DNA of 64,000 bases from Rhizophagus irregularis (lineage: Eukaryota): contig NC_089432.1 of NCBI RefSeq assembly GCF_026210795.1, forward strand, positions 744,001 through 808,000, given 5' to 3'. The notes beneath the pieces are model-generated. The model did no database searches and was not told where the DNA came from. It saw only the letters and a list, made by a program, of their open reading frames with translations. A program made the position numbers and the translations under genes. Positions 6,770 through 45,597 of this stretch are shown here, in pieces; the stretch's first letter is position 1, and the number at the start of each line of letters is the position of its first letter.

Positions 6770-9700
6770 TCAAATCTTGTTCCAGTCAACTAAATATAAT
6801 AAAGTATAAAATATCTTTAATTCAATATCATATTTTAGTAAGTAAAGAATTATAAACTTACCAATCAAATTTGAAGAGAATTTATGATATTCCGAAGGTT
6901 CGGTACTAGTATGCGATTCAGAAATTAAATTACCATCCATTCTTTCAAATTCATCCAATATTTCATTAATAGTTGGTCTTAATCTAGGTTCTTGACTCCA
7001 ACATTTTGTATAAAGTTTCTCATATTTTTCAGGAGTATTGGGAACTAACTTTTCACGAGTATTATTATTAACAATAGAAGCAGCAAGTGCCATTTTATCA
7101 TCAATATGTTTAAATGGAGGATGACCACTAGAAATTTCCCACATTAATACACCAAAGCTATAGATGTCTGAAGATTTAGTATATGGGGATTCTGGATTTT
7201 TAAGATGTTCTGGTCCCATATAAGAAATAATACCAAAATTACCAATATAAGCTGAAGTTTGATTATTTTGATTTTTTGAAATACCAAAATCTGTGATTTT
7301 AGCATTATTTTCATGAATAACTATATTCTTAGAATGCTAAAAAAAAAAATAAATTACATAAATAAATTATTGCTGCTAGTACTAATATGATATTAAATAA
7401 TAAATACTAATACTTACAAGATCTCTATGTAAAATATTTACATGATGCAAATAATTTAATCCATCTGCAATTTGAAATGCTAATTTTTTCTTATCATTCC
7501 ATGTCAAATTATTAAAATTATTTTTGAGATAATTTTGAAGATCCCCATCATTAGCATACTGCATAATAAGAAGATATTCATTTGTTTTTGGATCTAAAAA
7601 TAATTTATAAGAAATTAAAAAAATAACAAAAAATGTAATGTAAAAAAAAAAAAGTTTCAAATTACCTAAACTAATACCAAAGCAACGTATAATTCTTTCA
7701 CTATAATCAAGTTGCATATGCATTTTTAGTTCATGAGTAAATGCATCTAACAAATCATTCTTAATATAAGTTGTGTTAGTTAATTTTTTACAAACAACAT
7801 AATTATTAGTTTTAGTCCAAATTGCTTTAGATATTATTCCAAACCTTCCTGCATCAAGTGGTTCCACATTTTTTAATTCTTTATAAGATATAAGTTTAAC
7901 TTTTTCATATTTTAAAGCATTTTCAATCCATTTATTTGCGCCTAAACTTCCTTTTTCTACTCTTTTAAACGGGCTTTTTAAAACTTCTTTCACCCCTTTA
8001 CCAATCTTATAAAAGAATCCAGGTCTATATTGTGCATTGCTAAATCTTTGTTGAACCGCTTTTTGATACCAATAAGAGGCTTTAACTTCATCTTTTTTAA
8101 CACCAATTCCTTCTTTATAACAAACCCATAAATTAAATTGTGCTTCTTTATCTCCATTTTCTGCTGCTTTTTTATACCAATAGAAAGCTTTTTCTAAATT
8201 CTTTTCTATTCCTATTCCATTTGTATAACATATAGCTAAATTAAACATTGCATAAGTATTACCATTTTCTGCTGCTTTTTGATACCAATGAAATGCTTTT
8301 TCTAAATTCTTTTCTGTTCCTTCTCCATTATAATAACATATGGCTAAACTATTCATAGCAACTTCATTACTATTTTCTGCTGCTTTTTGATACCAATAGA
8401 AGGCTTTTTCTAAATTCTTTTCTGTTCCTTCTCCATAGTAATAATATATGGCTAAACTATTCATTGCAGCTTCATTACCATTTTCTGCTGCTTTTTGATA
8501 CCAATAGAAGGCTTTTTTTAAATTCTTTTCTGTTCCTTCTCCATTGTAATAACATATAGCTAAATTATTCATTTCATTTTTATTGCCATTTACTGCTGTT
8601 TTTTGATACCAATAGAAGGCTTTATCTAAATTCTTTTCTGTTCCTTTTCCATTTTTATAGAATATAGCTAAACTATTCATTGCATAAGTATTACCATTTT
8701 CTGCTGCTTTTTGATACCAATAGAAAGCTTTTTCTAAATTCTTTTCTGTTCCTTCTCCATTTTCATGACATATGGCTAAACTATTCATTGCTTTTTTATC
8801 TCCATTTTCTGCTGCTTTTTGATACCAATAGAAAGCTTTTTCTAAATTCTTTTCTATTCCTTCTCCATTTTTATAACATATGGCTAAACTATTCATTGCT
8901 TTTTTATCTCCATTTTCTGCTGCTTTTAGATACCAATAGAAAGCTTTTTCTAAATTCTTTTCTATTCCTTCTCCATTTTTATAACATATGGCTAAATTAT
9001 TCATTGCAGTTTCATTGTCATCTTCTGCTGCTTTTTGAAACCAATGAAATGCTTTTTCTAAATTCTTTTCTGTTCCTTCTCCATTTTCATGACATATGGC
9101 TAAATTATTCATTGCCTTTTTATTGCCGTTTTCTGCTGATTTTTGAAACCAATAGAAGGCTTTTTCTAGATTCTTTTCTGTTCCTTCTCCATTTTCATGA
9201 CATATAGCTAAATTATTCATTGCATTTTTATCTCCATTTTCTGCTGCTTTTTGATACCAATGAAATGCTTTTTCTAAATTCTTTTCTGTTCCTTCTCCAT
9301 TTTTAAAACATATCATGGCTAAATTAGTCATTGCATTTTTATTGCCATTTTCTGCTGCTTTTTGAAACCAATAGAAGGCTTTTTCTAAATTCTTTTCTGT
9401 TCCTTCTCCATTGTAATAACATATGGCTAAACTATTCATTGCAACTTCATTACTATTTTCTGCTGCTTTTTGATACCAATAGAAGGCTTTTTCTAAATTC
9501 TTTTCTGTCCCTTCTCCATTATAATAATATATGGCTAAACTATTCATTGCAGCTTCATTACCATTTTCTGCTGCTTTTTGATACCAATAGAAGGCTTTTT
9601 CTAAATTCTTTTCTGTCCCTTCTCCATTTTCATGACATATGGCTAAACTATTCATTGCTTTTTTATCTCCATATTCTGCTGCTTTTTGATACCAATAGAA

Positions 9701-12700
9701 GGCTTTTTCTAAATTTTTTTCTGTTCCTTCTCCATTTTTATAACATATGGCTAAATTATTCATTGCAACTTCATTACTATTTTCTGCTCCTTTTTGAAAC
9801 CAATGAAATGCTTTTTCTAAATTCTTTTCTGTTCCTTCTCCATTTTCATGACATATGGCTAAATTATTCATTGCTTTTTTATTGCCATTTTCTGCTGATT
9901 TTTGAAACCAATAGAAGGCTTTTTCTAGATTCTTTTCTGTTCCTTCTCCATTTTCATGACATATGGCTAAATTATTCATTGCATTTTTATCTCCATTTTC
10001 TGCTGCTTTTTGATACCAATGGAATGCTTTTTCTAAATTCTTTTCTGTTCCCATTCCATTTTTATAACATATCATGGCTAAACTAGTCATTGCATTTTTA
10101 TTGCCATTTTCTGCTGCTTTTTGAAACCAATAGAAGGCTTTTTCTAAATTCTTTTCTGCTCCTTCTCCATTGTAATAACATATGGCTAAACTATTCATTG
10201 CAACTTCATTACTATTTTCTGCTGCTTTTTGATACCAATAGAAGGCTTTTTCTAAATTCTTTTCTGTCCCTTCTCCATAGTAATAATATATGGCTAAACT
10301 ATTCATTGCAGCTTCATTACCAATTTCTGCTGCTTTTTGATACCAATAGAAGGCTTTTTTTAAATTCTTTTCTGTTCCTTCTCCATTGTAATAACATATA
10401 GCTAAATTATTCATTTCATTTTTATTGCCATTTACTGCTGTTTTTTGGTACCAATAGAAGGCTTTTTCTAAATTCTTTTCTGTTCCTTTTCCATTTTTAT
10501 AACATATAGCTAAACTATTCATTGCATAAGTATTACCATTTTCTGCTGCTTTTTGATACCAATAGAAGGCTTTTTCTAAATTCTTTTCTGTCCCTTCTCC
10601 ATTTTCATGACATATGGCTAAACTAGTCATTGCTTTTTTATCCCCATTTTCTGCTGCTTTTTGATACCAATAGTAGGCTTTTTCTAAATTTTTTTCTGTT
10701 CCTTCTCCATTTTTATAACATATGGCTAAACTATTCATTGCAGTTTCATTGTCATTTTCTGCTGCTTTTTGAAACCAATGAAATGCTTTTTCTAAATTCT
10801 TTTCTGTTCCTTCTCCATTGTAATAATATATGGCTAAACTATTCATTGCAACTTCATTACTATTTTCTGCTGCTTTTTGGTACCAATAGAAGGCTTTTTC
10901 TAAATTCTTTTCCGTTCCTTCTCCATTTTCATGACATATGGCTAAATTATTCATTGCTTTTTTATTGCCATTTTCTGCTGATTTTTGAAACCAATAGAAG
11001 GCTTTTTCTAAATTCTTTTCTGTTCCTTCTCCATTTTCATGACATATGCCTAAATTATTCATTGCATTTTTATCTCCATTTTCTGCTGCTTTTTGATACC
11101 AATAAAATGCTTTTTCTAAATTCTTTTCTGTTCCTTCTCCATTTTTATAACATATCATGGCTAAACTAGTCATTGCATTTTTATTGCCATTTTCTGCTGC
11201 TTTTTGAAACCAATAGAAGGCTTTTTCTAAATTCTTTTCTGCTCCTTCTCCATTTTTATAACATATGGCTAAATTAAACATTGCATAAGTATTACCATTC
11301 TCTGCTGCTTTTTGATACCAATGAAATGCTTTTTCTAAATTCTTTTCTGTTCCTTCTCCATTGTAATAATATATGGCTAAACTATTCATTGCAACTCCAT
11401 TACTATTTTCTGCTGCTTTTTGACACCAATGAAATGCTTTTTCTAAATTCTTTTCTGTTCCTTCTCCATTTTTATAACATATGGCTAAACTATTCATTGC
11501 AACTTCATTACTATTTTCTGCTGCTTTTTTTTGATACCAATAAAAGGCTTTTTCTAAATTCTTTTCTGTTCCTTCTCCATTGTAATAACAAATGGCTAAA
11601 TTATTCATTGCATCTTTATTGTCATTTTCTGCTGCTTTTTGATACCAATAGAAGGCTTTTTCTAAATTCTTTTCTATTCCTTCTCCATTGTAATAACATA
11701 TGGCTAAATTATTCATTGCAATTTCATTACCATTTTCTGCTGATTTTTGATACCAATGAAATGCTTTTTCTAAATTCTTTTCTGTTCCTTCTCCATTTTT
11801 ATAACATACGGCTAAACCAGTCATTGCATCAATCTGATCCTTTTCTGCTGACTTTTGATACCAATAGAAGGCTTTTTCTGAATTCTTTTCTGTTCCTTCT
11901 CCATTTTTATTACAAATGGCTAAATTATTCATTGCATCTTTATTGTTATTTTCTGCTGCTTTTTGATACCAATAAAAGGCTTTTTCTAAATTCTTTTCTG
12001 TTCCTTTTCCATTTTCATAACATATGGCTAAATTATTCATTGCAATTTCATTACCATTTTCTGCTGATTTTTGATACCAATGAAATGCTTTTTCTAAATT
12101 CTTTTCTGTTCCTTCTCCATTGTAATAACATATGGCTAAACCAGTCATTGCATCAATCTGATTTTTTTCTGCTGCTTTTTGATACCAATAGAAGGCTTTT
12201 TCTAAGTTCATTTCTGTTCCTTCTCCATTGTAATAACATATGGCTAAATTATTCATTGCATTTTTATTGTCATTTTCTGCTGCTTTTTGATACCAATAGA
12301 AGGCTTTTTCTAAATTCTTTTCTGTTCCTTCTCCATTGTAATAACATATAGCTAAATTATATATTCCATTTTTATTGCCATTTTCTGCTGCTTTTTTATA
12401 CCAATAAAAGGCTTTTTCTAAATTCTTTTCTGTTCCTTCTACATTTTTATAACATCTGGCTAAACTATTCATTGCATTAATATGACCATTTTCTGCTGCT
12501 TTTTGATACCAATAAAAGGCTTTTTCTAAATTCTTTTCTCCATTTTCATAACATATGGCTAAATTATTCATTGCAATTACATTACCATTTTCTGCTGATT
12601 TTTGATACCAATAAAAGGCTTTTTCTAAATTCTTTTCTGTTCCTTCTCCATTGTAATAACATATGGCTAAATTATTCATTGCTTTTTTATTGCCATTTTC

Positions 12701-12997
12701 TGCTGCTTTTTGATACCAATGAAATGCTTTTTCTAAGTTTTTTTCTGTTCCTTCTCCATTGTAATAACATATGGCTAAGCTATTCATTGCAACTTCATTG
12801 CCATTTTCTGCTGCTTTTTGATACCAATGAAATGCTTTTTCTAAATTCTTTTCTGTTCCTTCTCCATTGTAATAACATATGGCTAAATTATACATTGCAA
12901 CTTCTTCACCATTTTCTGCTGCTTTTTTATTTTGATGAAATAATTCAGTTTCATTTTTTACACTATTAATTACATTTTTGAATTTTTCTTCAGACAT
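6770..12997 (-). CDS. Giant Sel1-repeat (~45 x 36 aa) protein with C-terminal TKL-type kinase; 4 exons (12997-7666, 7593-7418, 7336-6862, 6789-6770)
   Basis: 1871-aa ORF of AMNxLAICYxNGEGTEKNLEKAFYWYQKAAENG repeats. GT-AG introns restore kinase motifs GRFG, HRDL|HSKNI, ITDFG, YMGPE, SDIYSFG. Confidence 0.9.
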
Positions 12998-13920
12998 TTT
13001 TAGTTAAAATTTTTTTTTTTTTTTTTGCTTACAAAAAATTACGGTGAAAATCTGGCATCTCTAATTATAAACAAAAAAAAAACTAAGAAAGACGAAATAC
13101 TGAAAGTTGAAAACATTTATGTTTGTTGGCGTTATTAATTACACTAGATCAACAGTTTGTGTAATTTAGTTCTTATTATGTTTTCTAAAATGGATGTCGC
13201 ACAAAAAAACGAACAGACAAATGATCAGCGATCACATGATATTAGACCAATCAAATGGTTTATTGTGCACAATAAATTACCTGCCGATCAAGAACTCACG
13301 TGACATTACTTCTGGAAGGACGAAGAGATTTAAAAAGCATAGGATACGTGAAACAATTAAAAGTCAAATATTGCTATAGATATAAAAAAAATTCGGTTTA
13401 CTAAAGCCTACGAACAAGTATTTACGCGAGAAGGCTCCGACAATGTCGTTAGTAAAAATGGTCAGAATATTTTTTAGAATATTTGACTCTAGTTAGTAAT
13501 TAATATTTTTCCTGATACACGATTTTTTGCCTGATACACAATTTATTATAACCATTTTTTAATTATAAAATCACATGATACCGGATAAAATGATGATATT
13601 TGTACGAAAATATTTAATCGGCAAATCAGGCTTAATAATTTCATAACATTTTCTTTAAAGATATATTTTAATTCTATTTTCATTAAGATTATTTGTATAA
13701 ATTTATATTCTAATGTAAAAAAAAATTTCAAGTTCAGTGATTCTTTTAAAACTATTAAAACAATTAATAAAACTCTGCGTATAAAACCAAATTTATTCTA
13801 ACATTAAAAGAAGTTATATTATTTTAATGATGCATTAAAAATTCGTTATTTGCAGAATTTTAATTTGTATATTCAATAAGCAAAATTCTATATCAGTTTC
13901 CAAATGAAATTAGTTAGTAA

Positions 13921-16602: not shown

Positions 16603-17286
16603 TCATTGGTATGTTTTACAGGTCACTGGATTATTAAAATTTTCAAATCTCCTTTGATATTTCATGCAACAACTATCACAAATTTTATCATTTACCATAC
16701 CATTCATCTCTTTAATTCTTTTTTTACATTCAGGACATTCTTTTTTGCTACTATAAAATCTATTGCTCCTTTTTTGATAACATTCATGACATTCTCCTAG
16801 TCTAACAGACTTTTTCTTATAACAATGGATACATCCTCCTTCTTTCTTTTTTACTAGTTCTGAAAATGCTGGTGAATTCTTTTTCGTTAGTTTGTCTAAG
16901 GATGCTGATGGTATCTCCTTCTTTTTTTGATAACATTCATAGCATTCCCCAAGTTTAACAGGTTTTTTCTGATGACAATGAACGCATTCTCCAGTAGATA
17001 TATTTTTAATACTTTCATTCTTTTCCATTTGTTCAGAAGATGCTAGTGAATTCTTCTTTTTTTGATAACATTCATAACATTCTCCTAGTTTAACAGGTCT
17101 TTTCTGATGACAATGGATGCATTCTTCAGTAGGTATATTTTCAATCCTTTCATTCTTTTTGTTTAATTCTAAAGATGTTGATGGTATCTCCTTCTTTTTT
17201 TGATAACATTCATAACATTCTCCAAGTCTAACAGGTTTTTTCTGATGACAATGGATGCATTCTTCAGTAGATATATTCTTTTCCAT
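16603..17286 (-). CDS. Cys-rich repeat protein (4 x CxHCxxKKxVxLGECxECYQK, putative Zn-binding); possibly truncated or a pseudogene
   Basis: Repeats visible in the 252-aa ORF; first ATG at 17286; the frame appears to continue past the TGA with another stop. Confidence 0.6.
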   Translation of the reverse strand: MEKNISTEECIHCHQKKPVRLGECYECYQKKKEIPSTSLELNKKNERIENIPTEECIHCHQKRPVKLGECYECYQKKKNSLASSEQMEKNESIKNISTGECVHCHQKKPVKLGECYECYQKKKEIPSASLDKLTKKNSPAFSELVKKKEGGCIHCYKKKSVRLGECHECYQKRSNRFYSSKKECPECKKRIKEMNGMVNDKICDSCCMKYQRRFENFNNPVTCKTYQ

Positions 17287-26093: not shown

Positions 26094-29000
26094 ATGGACC
26101 AATGTATTGGTAAAGGTAAAGTATATAACATGAATAATAATATAAATTAGAATTATTCAAAATTATTAAACCAAATTTGCAATATAACAAAACTAGTTTC
26201 TAGTAATATTGAAGAATTTGAGGAAAGTGGTACTGAAGAATTTGAAGGAAGTGGCACTGAAGAATTTGAAAGTAGTAGTATTGATGAATTTGAAGGAAGT
26301 TACACCAAGGAATCTGAAGGTATATCAAACAAACTGAAATTTAAGTTTTTATTTATAAACAATTCAAATACTACAAATATAATTTAGACTAACTATATTA
26401 TATAAAAATTATATTAAATATTTAGCTCGTAAGTTAATATAATTGAATAATAATGAATTACTCATTATTTTATTGTATTCCACATAACTAAATAATTTAT
26501 TCGATGATTAATGATGATGTAGTTAGTAAGTTATCAGTTATTTAAATCTTTAGTCCTTTACTTTATTTATTCTACATATATAACATTCAAATAACTAAAT
26601 TCTTTGCTTAAATAACTATTTAATAATTAATTATATTATTACAGTTGGTAAGTTACAACATATATATTATATTTATTTGTTTAATATTTTACATAATTCA
26701 ACTAATTATATTCTTAATTTAAATAACTAGATTGTAAGTAATATATATAATTTACAGCAAATAATGTTATATTATCTTTATATCCAACTAATTAATAATA
26801 ATTAACAATACTACAGGGTGTAAGTTATATGATATTTATATTTGTATTATTTATAAAATTTAACTAATTCTTTATTTAAAAAATTATTAAATAATATAGG
26901 GGGTAAGTTATTTATTTACTTATAATATTTACATATAATTTAAACTAACTAATTTCTTTATTTAAAAATTATTAGATAATATAGCTCGTAAGTTATTTAT
27001 TTAATTCTATTATTACTTATTGTTATAATATTTTCATATAATTTAAAATAACTAATTTCTTTATTTAATAATATAGCTCGTAAGTTATTTATTTAATTCT
27101 ATTATTACTTATTGTTATAATATTTACATATAGTCTAAACTAACTAATTTCTTTATTTAAAAAATTATTTAATAATATAGTTCGTAAGTTATTTATTTAA
27201 TTCTATTATTACTTATTGTTACAATAATTTAAACTAACTAATTTCTTATTTAAAAAATTATTTAATAATATAGCTCGTAAGTTATTTATTTAATTCTATT
27301 ATTACTTATTGTTATAATATTTACATATAATTTAAACTAACTAATTTCTTTATTTAAATATTATAGGGTGTAAGTTATTCATTTAATTCTATTATTAAAT
27401 AATTTAAACTAACTAATTTCTTTATTTAAAAATATTATTAAATAATATAGTTTGTAAGTTATTTATCTAATTCTATTATTACTTATTGTTATAATATTTA
27501 CATATAATTTAAACTAACTAATTTCTTTATTTAAAAAATTATTTTATAGATGGTAGGTTATTTATTTAATTCTATTACAGTATTACTTATTGTTATAATA
27601 TTTACATATAATTTAAACTAACTAATTTCTTTATTTAAAAAAATTATTAAATAATATAGGGTGTAAGTTATTTATTTAATTCTATTATTACTTATTGTTA
27701 TAATATTTACATATAATTTAAACTAATTATTTAAAATATTATTAAATAATTAAGTGGGGTGTAAGTTATTTATTTAATTCTATTATTACTTATTGTTATA
27801 ATAATTACATATAATTTAAACTAACTAATTTCTTTATTTAAAAAATTATTAAATAATATAGCTTGTAAGTTATTTATTTAATTCTATTATTGCTTATTGT
27901 TATAATAATTACATATAATTTAAACTAACTAATTTCTTTATTTAAAAAATTATTAAATAATATAGCTTGTAAGTTATTTATTTAATTCTATTATTACTTA
28001 TTGTTATAATATTTACATATAATTTAAACTAACTAATTTCTTTATTAAAAAATTATTAAATATTATAGACGGTAAGTTACTTATTTAATTCTATTATTAC
28101 TTAGTTATTGTTATAATATTTACATATAATTTAAACTAACTAATTTAAAAAATTATTTATGATCTAGTTTGTAAGTATCTCTACTGTTACATATTTTATG
28201 TAATATTTATTTGCTAACTGAATTCTTTCATTTAAAAAATATCTGTTACTTTACTAGTTGGTAAGTTGTAAATTGTAGGTTACCATATGTATTTATCTGA
28301 AAAATTAAGACTTATATTAATTAAATTTCTATTTAAATTTTAGAGTAAGTAATGATATATTTTGTGTGAATTATAATACAATCTATAATACAATTTTAAT
28401 TATTTATAGATTTGGAAAAAGTGGAAATGCAATTATAGATGATTTTATTCTTGAAAAAAAATTAAGATGGATTCCTTATAACAAATTTAAAAATGTTGAA
28501 TATCTTACTGAAGGAGGATTTGGTACTATATATAAAGCTATTTGGTTAAAGAATAATAGAGATGGAGATGAAGTAATTCTTAAATGTCACAAGAATTTAA
28601 ATGAAAATTTAAATGAATTTTTAAAAGAAGTATGATAGTATATTATTTTCTATTTTTAATTTGAATTAAAATTTATCTATATTAATAAATTATTATTATT
28701 ATTTATAGTGGGAATATCATACAAGTGTTTTAACTTCAAGAGAAATTATAAATGTTTATGGATTCACAAAAGATCCAAATACTTCAAAATATATGGTTGT
28801 AATGGAGTATGCAAATAAAGGTAATTTAAGAGAAAATTTAGCAAGAATAGTCAAAAATAATTGGAATCAAAAATTATATATGTTGTACGAAATTATTTCT
28901 GGACTTAGTGAGATACATGAAAAAAAACTTATTCATTGTGATTTTCATGATGGTAATATTTTAAATCATAATGATGAGAATGAGGATAAAATTTATATTA

Positions 29001-29741
29001 GTGATTTAGGATTATGTCAACCTGTAAAATCATTTTTGAAAGAGCATAATATTTATGGTGTTGTACCATTTATGGCTCCTGAAGTTTTAAGAGGCAAATC
29101 TTATACCCCAGCTAGTGATATATATAGTTTTTCCATGATTATGTGGGAGTTTACATCTGGAATATCACCATTTAATAATAGAGCACATGATATTCAACTT
29201 AGTTTAAGTATTTGTAAAGGTGAACGTCCTGAAATTATTGAAAATACTCCACAATGTTATGTAGATTTAATGAAAAAATGTTGGAATGGAGATCCATTAA
29301 AAAGGCCATCTACTTCAGAAGTGAAAAAAGTTATTTGTAATTGGATTTTCAGTCCTGATTATGATCAAATTGATCAAATTAATGAAGAATTAAAAAACAA
29401 CATTATGGAATTTATAAATGCACCAATTGGGCATAACAATCTTGCTACTAAATCTCATCCTAAAGCATGTTTTACAAGTCGCTTACTTGATTTTACTAGT
29501 AAAAAATTGAATGAAATTCTTGAAAGTGAAGATTCACAAGCATATCATACAAGTCATTCAGATTTGAATGATTGTGTGATTAAAGATTTGAGGTCATTAG
29601 GTATGTACTATGATATATAAAAAAATTAATCTTGCAAATTATTTATATGAAAATTAATTGATCTATTTAATTATTAAAACAGATGAGAATACTAATAAAA
29701 AGTTGAATGAAATTTTTGAAAGTGAAGATTCAAGTTATTAG
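26094..29741 (+). CDS. TKL-type protein kinase with acidic N-terminus and a micro-exon-encoded segment (exons 26094-26115, 26197-26319, 21 micro-exons 26426-28344, 28410-28629, 28709-29600, 29683-29741; alternative last exon 29874-29896)
   Basis: Kinase motifs EGGFG, VILK, MEYAN, HCDFHDGN, SDLG, MAPE, SDIYSF. The predicted splice path is open from ATG 26094 to the stop. The kinase part is secure; the 5' exon structure is inferred. Confidence 0.8.
26320..28409 (+). repeat. Tandem array of ~80-120-bp intron units, each followed by a micro-exon (mostly 3 nt)
   Basis: Unit pattern GTAAGT ... (AA)CTAAC/T branch-like motif ... YAG + NNN, repeated ~21 times with minor variants; the central units are nearly identical. 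Confidence 0.85.
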
Positions 29742-29988
29742 TGTAAAAGTTAGTAAGTGAATAATTATATAATTAAGGATCTGGGTCATTAGGTATGTAC
29801 TATGATGTATAAAAGAATTAATCTTGCAAATTATTTATGTGAAATTAATTTTATTTAATATTTAATTATTTAGATATTAAAGCGGATGAAAATTAACTAA
29901 TGATTGTTTGTTTTTAAAAAATTTAAAGTGACATTTGATATTGCACATTCAAAAAAAATTGTTTTTATTTTATTCTTTTAAATTTCAG

Positions 29989-30190: not shown

Positions 30191-30883
30191 TTATAACTTT
30201 TCCAATTACTACTATGGGATATAAATTGAATAAAATAATATAAAACCATTTTCACTGATAATGTAAAACTTTTTATACTTATTCTTGACTTTTATTTTAA
30301 TATTATTTTAAATATTTTGATAAGAAACTACACCAAGGATATCTGCTGGATTATATAATGCATCAGTTACTTATTAAATGAATATATATAATTTATTGCT
30401 TAATAAAAAAAATTCAAATGTACAATAAATTATAATGTTACAAATCACAGTGAACAATTCAAAAAAAATTTTTTTTTTTCATATTTTTTTTAATTAAAAA
30501 TATATAAAAATGTTGTCATGACTTAAAAATAGTTAATCAATTGATAAAAAAGCAAATTAATCATCCGGGATAGCAAATTAATAGGCAGTAAGTAGGGTTG
30601 GATCGGTCCTAGCAAAGACCGGTCCTGTATCAGTCTTGGGACTGGTCTTCCTGGTCTTCCTGGTCTTCATTCAGAGGACGATCCATATGATTATTTGTTT
30701 CAATAAAGATGAGCCAAATTTTTATGCTCACCTATTTCTACTTTAGATTTTGTTTCAGTTTTTTTTTTTTTAACTCGAAATGATTGTATTTATAGCAAAG
30801 TTATATAACCAGACTTTGGAGAACCACAAATTGTACTATACAATGTTTTTTATTACTATAATTGTAAATTTAATTACAATCCT

Positions 30884-31445
30884 ATGGAAAGCCATCCTTG
30901 ACAAAAGGTTGATATCCAGACATCATGTTGGATAATGTCTAGAGCATCATGTCAAATATATGTAGAATAATGTTTGTACATCATGTTACCAAATATAGTA
31001 AATTTTATTTTGTGTAATTCATAAATATACTATATTTGGTAATTTGATCAGCATGATGTCTAGACATCATGTTTGATATATGTAGGATGATGTTTGTACA
31101 TTATTTAACATGATGTGAAAGACATCAACTGACATGATGTCTAGACATCATGCTGATCAAATTACCAAATATAGTATATTTATGAGTTACACAAAATAAA
31201 ATTTACTATATTTGGTAACATGATGTCTAAGACATCATGTCGGTTGATGCTTGAGCATCATGTTGAATGATATACAAACATTATTCTACATATATCAAAC
31301 ATGATGTCTAGACATTATCCAACATGATGTCTGGATATCAACCTTTTGTCAAGGACGGCTTTCCATATAGACATACCATCATGATGTCTAAACATTATAT
31401 TTCATGATGTTTGGACACAACCTTTTGTCAAGGACGGCTTCCCAT
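30884..31445. mobile_element. Foldback-type non-autonomous DNA transposon with long inverted repeats and 8(-9)-bp TSD
   Basis: Ends ATGGAAAGCCATCCTTGACAAAAGGTTG / CAACCTTTTGTCAAGGACGGCTTCCCAT; TSD ACAATCCT at 30876-30883 and 31446-31453; the interior is largely palindromic with CATGATGTCTAGACATCATG sub-repeats. Confidence 0.85.
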
Positions 31446-33468
31446 ACAATCCTGATTCAAATTTCTAATTTAAGTATTTCGCCAACGCACCGTAACCTAA
31501 AATTTATACCCATGGCCTTTTTTCTTTTTCTGCTACATGCTTATCTATCTTTACATAATCTTTTTTACGTTGTTCAGGCACCTCAACTTCAAATATTTCC
31601 TAAAAAAAAGCCATTTTGATAAAGCATTAACATTATATTTATTGAAAAATTGATGCATAGTATATGAAAGAAGTATGGCGAAATATACTGTATCTTATAA
31701 TTACATGTTATCGTTTAGCTTTTTTTAGTTCATATTGAGAGTTATAAAAGTTTTAGTTTTAAAAAAAAATTATATGTAAAAGTTTAAAAAAAGTTTATTA
31801 TATAAAAGTTTAAAGTTTATATAAATGTATAAATAAGTTTATTTTAAGTGATTGTTTTATTTTTTTATTCTACTTACTTAAATTATCGTATGATCATATA
31901 TGGATTATTGTATGTCTGCATAATATGAACCTATGTGGCTAAATGATAATCAATATAATTAAATATTCTATTTTATATTATTAAATTTACTACAACTTAT
32001 GTTAGAGGAAGGAGACAACAAAAAAAATTGCGTCAATTAATTGTTATTTAATTAATAAACAACAAAAAAAAAACTAATTAAAAAAGATTTATTTTTCGGG
32101 TTGAACCAAAAAACAATAAATAAAAAGACAAAAAAATTTTTACTCCAAAATTAAAAAAAAATATGAAAAAACTGATATTTTTTTTTTTGGTATTGAACTA
32201 AAAACTGAAGGATAGCTTCAAATTATGCGATCTGCTGCTGAAATATGATTAAAAGTCAAATTAAACTTTTTATTTCGTTAGCATTATCTACCAGCAAAAA
32301 AAAAAGTATCCGATTAAAATTTCATTAGAAAATCTCTCAGATTGGTTATCAGAACGGATTTACCGACAACATATCACCGACATTCTACAATCCTGACACC
32401 AAGATCCCGATAAACCCAAATCCCTGACAGAAAAATCTTGACAGCCAAAATCCTAATAATTACATTAAAAAAATTCATTTGATTGAGTCTTAGGATTGAT
32501 TCAATCATTTATGATGTCAGAACAAACTGTACATGTGACCAATCAAATTATAATTTATCAGTTTATCAGAATAATTTTTTTTTAGTTATATATTTTAAAT
32601 AGTGAAGAAAGAATAATAACAATTTTAATGGTTTACAGAGATTTTTCATTAAATAGTAATTCTTATTTCTAAATTAATTTTTAATTTGGAAATTACAATA
32701 TGAATCAGTTTTATATATGAAGATTGAACTTTAGGTTATAGTATGGTCTCAAAATAATTTATGTCATCTCTAAATTGAAATACAAAATATAATCCTCTTT
32801 CGGTAAATTTATTTTTTTGGATGAAAATTCAGGATATGAATCAAACTTTCAAACTTTCATCTTAAAAATTCCTTCATTAATCTACATAGAGTACATAGAG
32901 TATCAACATCTTTACTACAATTTGATGAACACATTATTTAATATTTTCTTAATATATTGAAAAGATTTTTAAAAGCCTCAAATCATCAGAATTAACAAAT
33001 CTTTATAATTTCAACCTTTTATGTTAAAAAAGAATATTCTATAGATCCTGTGTTACATCATATACATTACATATGTTCTTTTAACTTATTAAAATGTAGC
33101 AATGTTGTAATTTTGGAATTTTTTTTATTATCTAAAAATATTTTGTAAATAGGTCGATTCAGATATTCACGTAATCGTCGCCAGGAATTATAAACATAAC
33201 CCCCTGTCGCACTAAGTGTCACTCATGATCACCTTCATACTAATTTTTAAAAATTACGAGTGATTAGCAATTTATAAATGACCGAAAATCTTCGTTTAGA
33301 AAAGCGATAAATAATTGTAAAAATAATGTTTTTATTAAAATTATCACGAATCTAATAAGTGAAAATATTATTGGGTTACAATTGTTAATATAATTCACTA
33401 TTTTCCCCTTTTAGGCACAGGATAAATAAAATACTATTAATAAAAAATAATTATCATGTACTTTTTAG

Positions 33469-39126: not shown

Positions 39127-42100
39127 TTAATCTTCAATCATACAATCAAGACTTTGAGACCCTTCTTCTAAAATTTCGTTAAGTCCGCGACTTGTATAAT
39201 GTGCTTGTGAATGATATTGCATAATAGAAGTACCTGCTTGTTCTTGCACTAAAGCTTTGTCTGCTTCTACAAATTCCAACATATCATTTTTTAATCGATT
39301 ATCAATATCAGATACTTCATACTCATAATTACCATCCTTGTTTATCTCATAATATTTATTAATACATCTAATCCATTCAGATATAATTATTTCAAGCACT
39401 ATTATGGTTGGTCTATTGGATGGATCTGAATCCCAACATTTTTTCATTAAATCTATATAACACTTGGGTGTAGTTTTTATAATTTCAGGTCGTTCCCCTC
39501 TACTACAAATATCCAAGGTAAGGTGATGATCATGTGCTTTATAATTAAATGGAGGAATACCTGATGTAAATTCCCACATTATCATTGAAAAGCTATAAAT
39601 ATCACTTGCTGTAGTATAGGCTTTTTTTCTTAATAATTCGGGCGCCATATAAGGTAAAACTCCATAAATTTTATTCACTTTATTATCAGAATATTGTAAA
39701 TCACTTATAGGTTTACATAATCCTAAATCAATAATAAATAACTCATAATTATCTGATATTAAAATATTACCATCATGGAAATCACCATGAGTTAAATTTG
39801 ATTCATGGATTACTTTAAGTCCTAATATAATTTTTTTCAACAATTGTAACTTTTCTTGCCACTTAAGTTTAATTATATCAGATAAACATTTTCTCAAACT
39901 TCCTTTTTTTGCATAACTCATTATTATTATATAATTTAAATTTTTCGGATCTTGGGTAATTCCAAAAAATTGAGTAAATTTTGAAAATGATTTCTTCTGA
40001 CAATTATAATGATATTTCCACTATATATATATAATAAAAAAGATTATTAAATTTTTGAAAAAGAAATAGAGTATTGCTAATATCACCGTTGGCGATTGTT
40101 ACCTTACCAAAATTAGGGTGGCAGAATTAAAAATTTCATGAAACTCCACCCACTAATTCTGGTACAGTGATGATCATCCATCGGTGATATTTAGGCAATT
40201 TTCAACTATTAAATATAAATACTATACCTCATCCAGAAATTTGCTATTTAAACCTGATGAATTATTAAGTGATTTGAGAATAACTTCATAATCTGTTTGT
40301 CTGTTCCATTGTTGTTTGTCAAAATTCCAACTATAAATAGGTCCATCTGACCAGATAGCTTTATGAATTTCACTGAATCCTCCTTTATCATAATAATTAA
40401 TATTTGACAACTTATTATAAGGTATCCACTCTAAAATTTCATAACTATTTTTAGCATTTAGTTGTGCTTCTTGAATAAATTTATCAATAAATTCATTTTT
40501 ACTAGTCCACTTTGAAAAATCTTGTTGGAATTGTTTAGTATTACATTGTTGGCACCACTGGTAATCAGTATATGGTTGTTTGCACTCATTACATAATTCA
40601 GCTTCATTTTTAGGGTTCATTTTGTTATTTTCTGCAGCTTTTTGATGCCAATAAAAAGCCTTTTCAAAATTCTTTTCTATTCCTTCTCCATTATTGTAAC
40701 TATTGGCCAAATTAATCATTGCTTCAGTATAACCATATTCTGCTGCTTGTTGATACCAATAAAATGCTTCTTTTAAATTCTTTTCTGTTCCTTCTCCATT
40801 TTTATAACATATACCTAAACTATTCATTGCTTCTTTACCACCATTTTCTGCTGCTTTTTGGTACCAATAAAATGCTTCTTCTAAATTCCTTTCTGTTCCT
40901 TCTCCATTTTTATAACATATGGCTAAACTATTCATTGCTTCTTTGTCATCGTTTTTCGCTGCTTTTTGATACCAATAAAATGCTTTTTCTAAATTCTTTT
41001 CTGTTCCTTCTCTATTTTTATAACATACAGCCAAACTATTCATTGCTTCTTTATCATTATTTTCTGCTGCTTTTTGATACCAACAAAATGCTTTTTCTAA
41101 ATTCTTTTCTGTTCCCTCTCCATTTTTATAACATACAGCTAAATTAAACATTGCTCCAATGTGATCTTCTTCTGCTGCTTTTTGATACCAATAAAAGACT
41201 TTTTCTAAATTTCTTTCAGTACCTTCTCCAAGTTCATAACATATAGCTAAAGTATACATTGCTTCAATATAATTTTTTTCTGCTGCTTTTTGATACCAAT
41301 AAAGGGCTTTTTCTAAATTCTTTTCTGTTCCTTCTCCATTTCCATAACATATGGCTAGATTAAACATTGCTTCTTTAACACCATTTTCTGCTGCTTTTTG
41401 ATACCAATAAAAAGCTTTTTCTAAAATTTTTTCTGTTCCTTCTCCAATTTCATAACATATAGCTAAACTATTCATTGCTTTAATATGACCATTTTCTGCT
41501 GCTTTTTGGTACCAATTAAAGGTTTTTTCTAAATTTTTTTCTGTTCCTTTTCCATTTTCATAACATATAGCTAGATTAAACATTGCTTCAATATAATCTT
41601 CTTCTGCTGCTTTTTGATACCAGCAAAATGCTTTTTCTAAATTCTTTTCTGTTCCTTTTCCATTTTCATAACGTATGGAAAGATTAAACATTGCTTCTTT
41701 AATGCCATTTTCTGCTGCTTTTTGATACCAATAAAGGGCTTTTTCTAAATTCTTTTCTGTTCCTTTTCCATTTTCATAACATATGGCTAGATTAAACATT
41801 GCTTCTTTAATACCATTTTCTGCCCCTTCTTGATACCAAGAAATGGCTTTTCCTAAATTCTTTTCTGTTCCTTCCCCAATTTCATAACATATGGCTAGAT
41901 TAAACATTGCCTTAATGTGACCATTTTCTGCTGCTTTTTGATACCAATAAAAAGCTTTTTCTAAAATTTTTTCTGTCCCTTCTCCATTTTTATAGCATCT
42001 ACCTAAACTATTCATTGCTTCTTTATCACCATTTTCTGCTACTTTTTGATACCAATAAAAGGCTTTTTCTAAATTCTTTTCTGTTCCTTTTCCATTTCCA

Positions 42101-45100
42101 TAACATATGGCTAGATTAAACATTGCTTCTTTAACACCATTTTCTGCTGCTTTTTGATACCAATGAAGGGCTTTTTCTAGGTACTTTTCTGTTCCTTCTC
42201 CAATTTCATAGCATATGGCTAGATTAAACATTGCTTTAATATGATCATTTTCTGCTGCTTTTTGATACCAATAAAAAGCTTTTTCTAAAATTTTTTCTGT
42301 CCCTTCTCCATTTTTATAGCATATGCCTAAACTATTCATTGCTTCTTTAACACCATTTTCTGCTGCTTTTTGGTACCAATAAAAGGCTTTTTCTAAATTC
42401 TTTTCTGTTCCTTTTCCATTTCCATAACATATAGCTAAACTATTCATTGCTTTAAGATGAACATTTTCTGCTGCATTTTTATACCAATAAAGGGCTTTTT
42501 CTAAATTCTTTTCTGTTCCTTTTCCATTTTAATAACATATAGCTAGATTAAACATTGCTTCTTTTACACCATTTTCTGCTGCTTTTTGATACCAGCAAAA
42601 TGCTTCTCCTAAATTCTTTTCTACTCCTTTTCCATTTCCATAACATATAGCTAGATTAAACATTGCTTCTTTAACACCATTTTCTGCTGCTTTTTGATAC
42701 CAGTAAAATGCTTTTTCTAAATTCTTTTCTGTCTCTTCTCTATTTTTATAACATATGCCTAAACTATTCATTGCTTCTTTATCACCATTTTCTGCTGCTT
42801 TTTGGTACCAATAAAGGGCTTTTCCTAGATTCTTTTCTGTTCCTTCTCCAATTTCATAACATATGGCTAGATTAAACATTGCTTCTTCAATACCATTTTC
42901 TGCTGCTTTTTTATACCAACGAATGGCTTTTTTTAAATTCTTTTCTGTTCCTTCTCCATTTTCATAATATATAGCTAAACTATTCATTGCTTTAATATGA
43001 CCATTTTCTGCTGCCTTTTTATACCAATGAAAGGCTTTTTTAAAATTCTTTTCTATTCCTTCCCCAATTTCATAATATATAGCTAAACTATTCATTGCTT
43101 CTTTAACACCATCTTCTGCTGCCTTTTTATACCAATGAAAAGCTTTTTCTAAATTCTTTTCTGTTCCTTCCCCAATTTCATAACATATAGCTAAACTATT
43201 CATTGCTTCTTTAACACCATCTTCTGCTGCTTTTTGGTACCAGTAAAATGCTTTTTCTAAATTCTTTTCTGTTCCTTTTCCATTTTCATAACATATGGCT
43301 AGATTAAATATTGCTTCTTTAACACCATTTTCTGCTGATTTTTTATACCAGCAAAATGCTTTTTCTAGATTCTTTTCTGTTCCTTTTCCATTTTCATAAC
43401 ATATGGATAAATTAAACATTGCTTCTTTATCATCATTTTCTGCTGCTTTTTGGTACCAATAAACTGCTTTTTCTAAATTCTTTTCTGTTCCTTTTCCATT
43501 TTTATAACACACAGCTAGATTAAACATTGCTTTAATGTGACCATTTTCTGCTGCTTTTTGATACCAATGAAGAGATTTTTTAAAACTCTTTTCTGTTCCT
43601 TCCCCAATTTTATAACATATGGCTAAAATATTCATTGCTTCTTTATCATCATTTTCTGCTGCTTGTTGATACCAATAAACTGCTTTTTTTAAATTCTTTT
43701 CTGTTCCTTTTCCATTTTTATAACATACAGCTAGATTAAACATTGCTTCATTAACACCATTTTCTGCTGCTTTTTGGTACCAGCAAAATGCTTTTTCTAA
43801 ATTCTTTTCTGTTCCTTTTCCATTTTCATAATATATGGATAGATTAAACATTGCTTCTTTAACACCATTTTCTGCTGCTTTTTGGTACCAGCAAAATGCT
43901 TTGTCTAAATTCTTTTCTGTTCCTTTTCCATTTTCATAACATAAGCCTAAAATATTCATTGCTGCTTTGTTATCATTTACTGCTGCTTTTTGATACCAGC
44001 AAAATGCTTCTTCTAAATTCTTTTCTGTTCCTTTTCCATTTTCATAACATATGCCTAAACTATTCATTGCTTCTTTATCATCATTTTCTGCTGCATTTTT
44101 ATACCAATAAAATGCTTTTTCTAAATTTTTTTCTGTTCCTTCTCCATTTTCATAACATATGGCAAGGTTAAACATTGCTTCCTTAATACCATTTTCTGCT
44201 GCATTTTGATACCAGCAAAATGCTTTTCCTAAATTCTTTTCTGTTCCTTTTCCATTTTCATAATATATGGATAGATTAAACATTGCTTCTTTAACACCAT
44301 TTTCTGCTGCTTTTTTATACCAACGAAAGGCTTTTTTTAAATTCTTTTCTGTTCCCTTTCCAATTTCATAATATATAGCTAAACTATTCATTGCTTTAAT
44401 ATGACCATTTTCTGCTGCCTTTTTATACCAATGAAAGGATTTTTTTAAATTCTTTGCTGTTCCTTCCCCAATTTCATAATATATAGCTAAACTATTCATT
44501 GCTTTAATATGACCATTTTCTGCTGCCTTTTTATACCAATGAAAGGCTTTTTTTAAATCCTTTTCTATTCCTTCCCCAATTTCATAACATATAGCTAAAC
44601 TATTCATTGCTTCTTCAACACCATTTTCTGCTGCTTTTTGGTACCAATAAAAGGCTTTTTCTAAATTCTTTTCTGTTCCTTTTCCATTTTCATAACATAT
44701 GGATAGATTAAACATTGCTTCTTTGGCACCATTTTCTGCTGCTTTTTGATACCAGCAAAATGCTTTTTCTAAATTCTTTTCTGTCCCTTTTCCATTTTCA
44801 TAACATATTGCTAAACTACACATTGCTTCTTTATCAATGTTTTTTGCTGCTTTTTGATACCAATAAAATGCTTTTTCTAAATTCTGTTCTGTTCCTTTTC
44901 CATTTTCATAACATATGGCTAGGTTAAACATTGCTTCTTTAATACCATTTTCTGCTGCTTTTTGGTACCAGCAAAATGCTTTTTCTAAATTCTTTTCTGT
45001 TCCTTTTCCATTTTCATAACATATGCCTAAACTATTCATTGCTTCAATATCATTTTCTGCTGCTTTTTGATACCAGCAAAATGCTTTTCCTAAATTATTT

Positions 45101-45597
45101 TCCGTTCCTTCCCCAATTTCATAACATATGGCTAGATTAAACATTGCTTTAATGTGACTATTTTCTGCTGCTTTTTGATACCAATAAAAGGCTTTTTCTA
45201 AATTCTTTTCTGTTCCTTCTCCATTTTCATAACATATGGCTAGATTAAACATTGCTTCTTTAACACCATTTTCTGCTGCTTTTTGATACCAATAAAGTGC
45301 TTTTTCTAAATTCTTTTCTGTTCCCTTTCCATTATAATAGCAAATTGCTAAATTAAACATTGCTTCAATATGACCATTTTCCACTGCTTTTTGATACCAA
45401 TAAAAGGCATTTTTTAAGTTTTTTTCTGTTTCTTCTCCAGTTATATAATTATTGGCTGAATTAAACATTATTGCTTTATCACATTTCTTACACCATAGTT
45501 CTTTGGTAAAATGTTTATTGCAATATGAACAATTTTTGGAATTTACGTTATTGGTATTTTTATTCAAGATACTTGATTTACTAAATCTGGTTTCCAT
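39127..45597 (-). pseudogene. Giant Sel1-repeat (~45 units) + TKL kinase gene with one in-frame nonsense codon; exons 45597-40228 and 40020-39127
   Basis: ORFs 45597..42529 and 42447..40222 are in the same frame. TAA at 42531-42529 replaces the E/K codon of a repeat. The kinase has HGDFHDGN, IDLG, YMAPE. Confidence 0.85.
40069..40204. mobile_element. MITE-like palindromic element inside the kinase intron (40021-40227)
   Basis: Inverted ends TGCTAATATCACCG..GG / CC..CGGTGATATTTAGGCA; homologous to 22209-22346 and 50420-50467. Confidence 0.6.

Follow-up and report, generated by a model that had tools for sequence, protein, structure and literature searches.

Upstream of the kinase domain in a gene of Rhizophagus irregularis, the exon junctions fall in phase 1, while the acceptor of the first kinase exon, TATAG in front of position 28410, needs phase 2. 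This raises the question of how the missing base is supplied. The first-pass annotation answered it with an exon of one nucleotide, the A at 28344 in TTTAG-A-GTAAGT (AG at 28342-28343, GTAAGT from 28345), and its coordinates for this unit and for the acceptor are correct on the sequence. The single base lies between the AG and the GT of two full-length introns (83 and 65 nt). The reading preferred here, with a probability of about 0.85, is that this A is an exon of its own, that splicing joins it to a TTG exon on one side and to the first kinase exon on the other, and that it ends a row of about 20 predicted three-base exons, which likely encode a rapidly changing linker ahead of the kinase. 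That a one-base exon is real in the gene family can be held with still greater confidence, close to certainty, and it very likely belongs to the gene studied here as well.

The window, that is, the whole 64,000-nucleotide stretch of DNA analysed, is AT-rich (GC 15-34%) and contains several kinase and repeat-protein genes. Two kinase genes on the minus strand, at 7382-13003 and 40222-45597, each carry about 45 copies of a 108-bp repeat, which we take to be Sel1-like, and the latter gene has an in-frame stop near 42529. Also on the minus strand, 135-bp repeats at 16895-17277 encode paired CxxC motifs within an open frame of 253 residues. A segment at 30877-31446 has short internal repeats and the look of a long inverted repeat; it may be a small mobile element.

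Judged by its sequence, the gene in question is a typical member of the expanded Rhizophagus kinase repertoire. Its first kinase exon (28410-28629) has 168 homologs, and all 120 of those listed come from R. irregularis, R. diaphanus or R. clarus, with a best identity of 90% among these 120. The main kinase exon matches the Pfam family PK_Tyr_Ser-Thr with 123 bits against a cut-off of 23, and the translation contains a Gly loop, Lys, HCD, DLG and APE, which we take to be the catalytic motifs of a kinase. Reads joining 28629 to 28709, of which there are 53, 84 and 34 in three RNA runs, confirm the intron between the two kinase exons (28630-28708). At the N-terminus, the window copy begins Met-Asp-Gln-Cys, several paralogs begin Met-Gly-Gln-Cys/Tyr, and Met-Gly-x-Cys starts are presumably putative lipid anchors. 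Some paralogs have a short segment after the first exon, which the window copy lacks, and exon 2 contains a 24-nt internal repeat. The tail of the kinase (29494-29850) is a 192-bp duplication of exon plus intron, and an in-frame stop at about 29739-29741 in the second copy would remove a last exon that is present in homologs. The features of the gene are collected in the table.

Table. Features of the kinase gene, in positions of the window.
Feature	Position	Strand	Basis and remarks
Predicted first coding exon	26094..26115	+	ATG, ends in phase 1; sequence, and N-terminus shared with database models P0084, P0121 and P0038
Predicted exon 2	26197..26319	+	123 nt, phase 1-1, acidic Glu/Ser/Gly repeats; homologs with same frame, 76-90% identity
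18 predicted three-base exons	26426..28170	+	At 26426, 26523, 26645, 26731, 26817, 26900, 26985, 27077, 27181, 27274, 27367, 27451, 27550, 27660, 27862, 27966, 28069 and 28168
Altered unit	27755..27760	+	Predicted 6-nt exon with AAG acceptor, or skipped; frame open either way
Last three-base exon, TTG	28258..28260	+	Spliced to A in RNA reads; present in L002
Upstream intron, 83 nt	28261..28343	+	Sequence; retained in a few polyA reads
One-base exon, A	28344..28344	+	Phase 1-2, middle base of Glu codon; RNA joint from 28344 to 28410, and 12 of 12 nt kept in L001-L003
Downstream intron, 65 nt	28345..28409	+	RNA joint skips 65 nt, GT..AG
First kinase exon	28410..28629	+	Phase 2-0; encodes FGKSGN motif, Gly-rich loop and catalytic Lys; RNA coverage begins at 28410
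Candidate alternative phase-1 acceptor	28437..28439	+	Its use would leave out the A exon and 10 residues; open frame; junction of model P0084 matches
Main kinase exon	28709..29600	+	PF07714, E 1.5e-35; RNA coverage
Predicted last coding exon	29683..29741	+	Duplicated tail unit with in-frame stop

Taken alone, the one-base motif stands at chance level, as YAG-N-GTAAGT occurs once in the window where 0.54 matches are expected, and one match is also attained by 41 of 100 shuffled sequences. Its context lifts it above chance: it stands at the end of 18 YAG-NNN-GTAAGT units in a row, it is kept in related loci and it is used in RNA. Joining exons 1 and 2, all units and the A gives a single open frame into the kinase. 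At acceptor 28410, a stop-free frame arises only from phase 1 plus the A, and stops appear when the A is left out; the phase gap described by the first-pass annotation, with the A completing a Glu codon, is thus borne out. The same annotation called the exon obligatory and regarded the exact frame fit as independent support. Acceptor 28439 without the A likewise gives an open frame, so the fit is no proof of the exon, and the word obligatory holds for acceptor 28410, which is dominant in RNA, and not for 28439.

Transcript evidence came from raw-read runs carrying the same species label, two from one study (X21 and X22) and one from another study with an ambiguous label (X24). About a quarter to 30% of each RNA run was aligned over 28158-29490, with one DNA contig run as control each time, and 611, 743 and 241 reads (1595 in total) fell on 28158-28520. 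Only three of the 1595 are at least 99% alike to the window, so the reads represent paralogs or other isolates rather than the window's own allele. The joint from 28344 to 28410, which skips 65 nt with GT..AG ends and no ambiguity, is present in all three RNA runs (5, 6 and 4 reads, 15 in total, from 13 start places) and in none of the reads of the DNA run X17. A further eight reads (2, 1 and 5) join 28253 to 28410, and the letters in between, printed for seven of them (two in X21, five in X24), are GTTGA. DNA contigs read GTTGGTAAGTT at this place, and many contigs lack 3 nt at 28252; the reads are therefore composed of intron, TTG, A and kinase exon. The cDNA sequence that had been predicted, TTG-A-ATTTGG with two As, is what these reads contain.

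The largest group of reads consists of loose ends at 28410 (326, 433 and 86 reads, or 845 of the 1595), and the consensus of each run ends in TTTTGA, with an agreement of 0.55-0.62 over 30 letters that is expected for mixed paralogs. A second group of 23 and 24 reads ends in TTTTGAG at 28411, which gives a synonymous Glu codon; upstream of TTG-A, this group has, in our own reading, an open frame of triplets resembling those of the window. Spliced reads, too, extend upstream of TTG-A into sequence that is not intronic. The paralog reads show that the two GT-AG introns flanking the A are removed, whereby a phase-1 junction becomes the phase-2 start of the kinase and the Glu codon is completed.

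The depth of polyA reads differs between the two introns: it is about 9-11 (X21) and 7-9 (X22) in the upstream intron and 0-1 over most of the downstream one, whereas DNA contigs cover both about equally. This suggests that the downstream intron is usually removed first. In 12 X21 reads the loose ends fall before 28407; these reads resemble transcripts of a diverged paralog that keep the downstream intron, and they speak against a strict order of splicing.

A metagenome scan returned eight loci, of which three are informative in having both the exon start and upstream DNA (L001-L003). The others were set aside, as L005 begins inside the exon, L004 is without the exon start of the family and L006-L008 are weak matches. 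With protein identities of 88%, 61% and 67%, all three informative loci have TTTAG-A-GTAAGT 72-90 nt before a phase-2 acceptor, as the first-pass annotation had expected of paralogous kinases. All 12 letters of this unit are identical in each of the three, while the intron bodies of the two distant loci match less, at 60-70% (50/71 and 33/55 in L002, 43/66 and 37/56 in L003). L002 also has the TTG unit, and L003 has one further three-base unit, the unit before its A being disturbed by a small duplication. This tandem duplication, at 130-165 of L003, makes the last three-base unit a candidate exon of 36 nt and keeps the frame before the A. An AAG instead of YAG is used or predicted as acceptor at 245-249 in L002, 331-335 in L003 and 27752-27754 in the window. 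A scan of viral contigs returned no relative.

The row that the A closes was predicted from sequence, and RNA shows splicing of its last unit, TTG. The window contains YAG-NNN-GTAAGT 19 times, compared with an expectation of 0.50 and with none of 100 shuffles reaching this number; 18 of the matches lie between 26423 and 28266. The isolated match outside the array, at 30582-30593, is within chance expectation. The 18 GTAAGT units and one unit with a GTAGGT donor make 19 three-base units, TTG included, to which the altered 6-nt unit is added. The introns of the array are 80-119 nt in length, with donors of the GT(A)AGT type and YAG acceptors, and in most of them an ACTAAC resembling a branch point precedes the acceptor by 30-43 nt. 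G and C account for 29 of 64 exonic letters compared with 252 of 1961 intronic ones. A tandem repeat with a period of 104 spans 27399-28146 in 7.2 copies; introns 7-19 are 90-100% identical, and the older units at both ends of the array have diverged, a pattern pointing to tandem duplication of an intron together with its triplet as the way in which the array grew. Even in the old units, whose introns are about 53-79% alike to those of other units, AG and GT are still separated by exactly three bases. The frame is kept whichever units are included, and stops arise only where a unit ending in T adjoins the A, which may explain the conserved TTG. It is quite likely that the array is spliced into transcripts.

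Among the 11 three-base exons flanked by young introns, there are at least 7 changes in the three triplet sites compared with 24 in 100 intron columns, and no three adjacent intron columns exceed 3 changes. A crude Poisson estimate for this difference, based on three sites in 11 related units, is about 1e-5. Non-majority letters make up 15 of 33 exonic and 29 of 1206 intronic positions when the 6-nt unit is left out. Pairwise divergence (112/171 vs 449/9867) comes from 57 pairs that are not independent of one another and is given no weight here. By these sequence counts, the triplets have diverged at roughly ten or more times the rate of the introns. The most probable explanation is selection for a variable peptide, with homogenisation of the introns as an alternative, and the divergence test fits both. 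For a diversifying role of the array, we consider the odds to be even.

Among the 120 database models examined, none contains the junction supported by RNA. The residues before the FG motif are SK or SN in 23 models, LE in six and a read-through LNFR in three, endings that are interpreted as the result of gene predictors working round the A, and the FG motif is absent altogether from 41. In seven SK-type models, the residues I, L, M, V, F and G make up 74-91% of the upstream sequence against a background of 34%. These long runs resemble an array translated in the wrong frame, which suggests that paralogs may have 20-45 units; an origin of the SK-type models from paralogs with one contiguous exon was also considered. 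A protein search with exon 2 gave six matches, none of them with a correctly read array. The hydrophobic phase-0 translation of the triplets had been entertained as a transmembrane helix, a candidate that was dropped once the RNA junction fixed the frame, and the hydrophobic segments in several models are likely spurious. The models point to an apparent mis-annotation of the kinase N-termini across the family.

Several other explanations of the locus have to be weighed against the one-base exon. Transcripts could bypass the A through acceptor 28439 and yield a kinase shorter by 10 residues, so that the exon would be optional or decorative. The open frame, the junction of P0084 and the many models without the FG motif agree with such a bypass, but RNA depth rises at 28410 together with the loose ends there, no joint at 28439 is listed, and in no run does this position figure among the six loose-end places with the most reads, the lowest of which have 9, 14 and 4 reads. 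An alternative acceptor of this kind had been named in advance as evidence against the exon, and as RNA does not show 28439 as a main site, the bypass is improbable. Less probable again is an exon of 5 nt (28344-28348) that uses the second GT as its donor, in which case the triplets would be whole codons of a hydrophobic, transmembrane-like N-terminus. Read in phase 0, all triplets indeed encode hydrophobic residues or Gly, and the SK/SN endings and hydrophobic runs of the database models point the same way. However, a hydrophobic appearance would follow if the T-rich third codon position were the middle base of each triplet, and the 5-nt exon leads to a stop after the conserved phase-1 exon 2. 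Moreover, the RNA joint lies at 28344, no joint from 28348 is listed at the 1% threshold in the three RNA runs, and the consensus ends in TTTTGA, by which the 5-nt exon is largely refuted. Finally, since the reads stem from many paralogs, the additional A could be ascribed to RNA editing, slippage or mis-mapping of paralogs rather than to splicing. Yet reads that retain the upstream intron run through TTTAG-A and then jump exactly from GT to AG at 28410, the genomic unit is kept in three other loci, and no locus seen carries the additional A at the start of its kinase exon; this explanation is scarcely credible.

A different kind of alternative accepts the one-base exon and concerns the inner array, which could be a neutral satellite within intronic DNA, made up of copied splice signals that are mostly skipped or used at random, the triplet contrast reflecting intron homogenisation. 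Skipping is indeed neutral for the frame, the young block is a tandem repeat, and TTG is the only one of the 19 three-base units for which RNA splicing is seen. Against a satellite, the diverged old units retain their three bases between AG and GT, triplets in such a repeat should be homogenised along with their neighbours, no stop occurs when all units are read through, and the spliced reads continue into non-intronic sequence upstream of TTG-A. We regard a neutral satellite as unlikely, though it deserves more weight than a bypass of the A.

Under the preferred reading of a one-base exon that closes an array of codon-sized exons, the introns would be recognised singly, by intron definition, and excised in sequence, as a rule beginning with the downstream one. 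The A would first be fixed to the large kinase exon, after which the array would be cleared towards its 5' end. Over evolutionary time, the array would have grown by tandem duplication of an intron with three bases, each copy adding one codon and keeping the frame, and selection for a variable peptide would be the most likely reason why the triplets diversify. Putative further isoforms would arise where single units are skipped.

One-nucleotide exons are known from APC11 of Arabidopsis, for which sequential intron removal under intron definition was proposed (PMC4674806), from APC11 and VPS55 in plants (PMC8831610) and from CYP621A in Fusarium (PMC12940212). The first-pass annotation rightly described such exons as known, but in fungi they are less rare than it implied, as Coprinopsis cinerea is reported to have 13 of them, along with 27 three-base exons over 26 genes (PMC12230235). 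The exon described here resembles those reported in being one base between ordinary GT-AG introns that is conserved, missed by annotation and, at acceptor 28410, needed for the frame. Unlike the cases in APC11, VPS55, CYP621A and Coprinopsis, which these sources present as single micro-exons in conserved coding regions, it ends about 20 consecutive predicted three-base exons in a large family of paralogs.

Arrays of 3-bp exons, with dozens of units and reported alternative splicing, have been described in the NACHT-ankyrin (nank) genes of Tuber melanosporum (Iotti et al. 2012, as cited in PMC4986451, PMC10197012 and PMC9815663). Both systems, as far as these accounts describe nank, involve a fungal symbiont, an expanded gene family, many 3-bp exons (19 here by sequence) and a proposed diversification. 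In contrast to nank, an NLR with a C-terminal sensor, the host gene here encodes a protein kinase with the array in an N-terminal linker, it belongs to a distant lineage, and its array ends in a phase-shifting exon of one base. By analogy, the Rhizophagus gene would work like a nank gene without being one, given the kinase domain downstream of its array. The MEG genes of Schistosoma are reported to have 10-20 very short, mostly frame-symmetric exons, mostly of 15 bp (6-81), separated by introns of 100-5000 bp and encoding secreted products (PMC10526429). The Rhizophagus gene resembles them in the number and frame symmetry of its predicted very short exons and differs in having exons of 3 nt, introns of 65-119 nt and a product with a kinase domain.

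In a broader and more tentative proposal, which we hold to be possible though rather less than evenly probable, the array would act as a "one codon per exon" diversifier in a large subfamily of Rhizophagus kinases. Its units would expand, contract and mutate under selection and be skipped combinatorially, while the fixed TTG and the one-base exon would lock the frame of the kinase. The result would be a repertoire, across the whole family, of variable linkers that serve as sensor or bait and connect a membrane-anchoring N-terminus to the kinase. Such an immune-like system of arbuscular mycorrhizal fungi would have arisen independently of the NLR arrays of truffles and would be invisible in present annotations.

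The expansion of kinases in these fungi is large and, to our knowledge, unexplained. The repertoire in Rhizophagus has been put at 2,533 members, in a study from whose main text the word "microexon" is absent (PMC10234402), and no report of micro-exons in mycorrhizal kinases was found in the literature covered, most subscription journals and supplements being outside its scope. One-base exons and arrays of codon-sized exons were known already, whereas the occurrence of both in mycorrhizal kinases is apparently new. For a widespread plant symbiont, there is now RNA support for a one-base exon common to a kinase subfamily. Twenty consecutive predicted exons of 1-6 nt offer an extreme natural substrate for studying intron definition and the order of splicing, and the probable hypervariable linker, built of one exon per codon, provides a concrete, testable lead on what the many kinase copies differ in.
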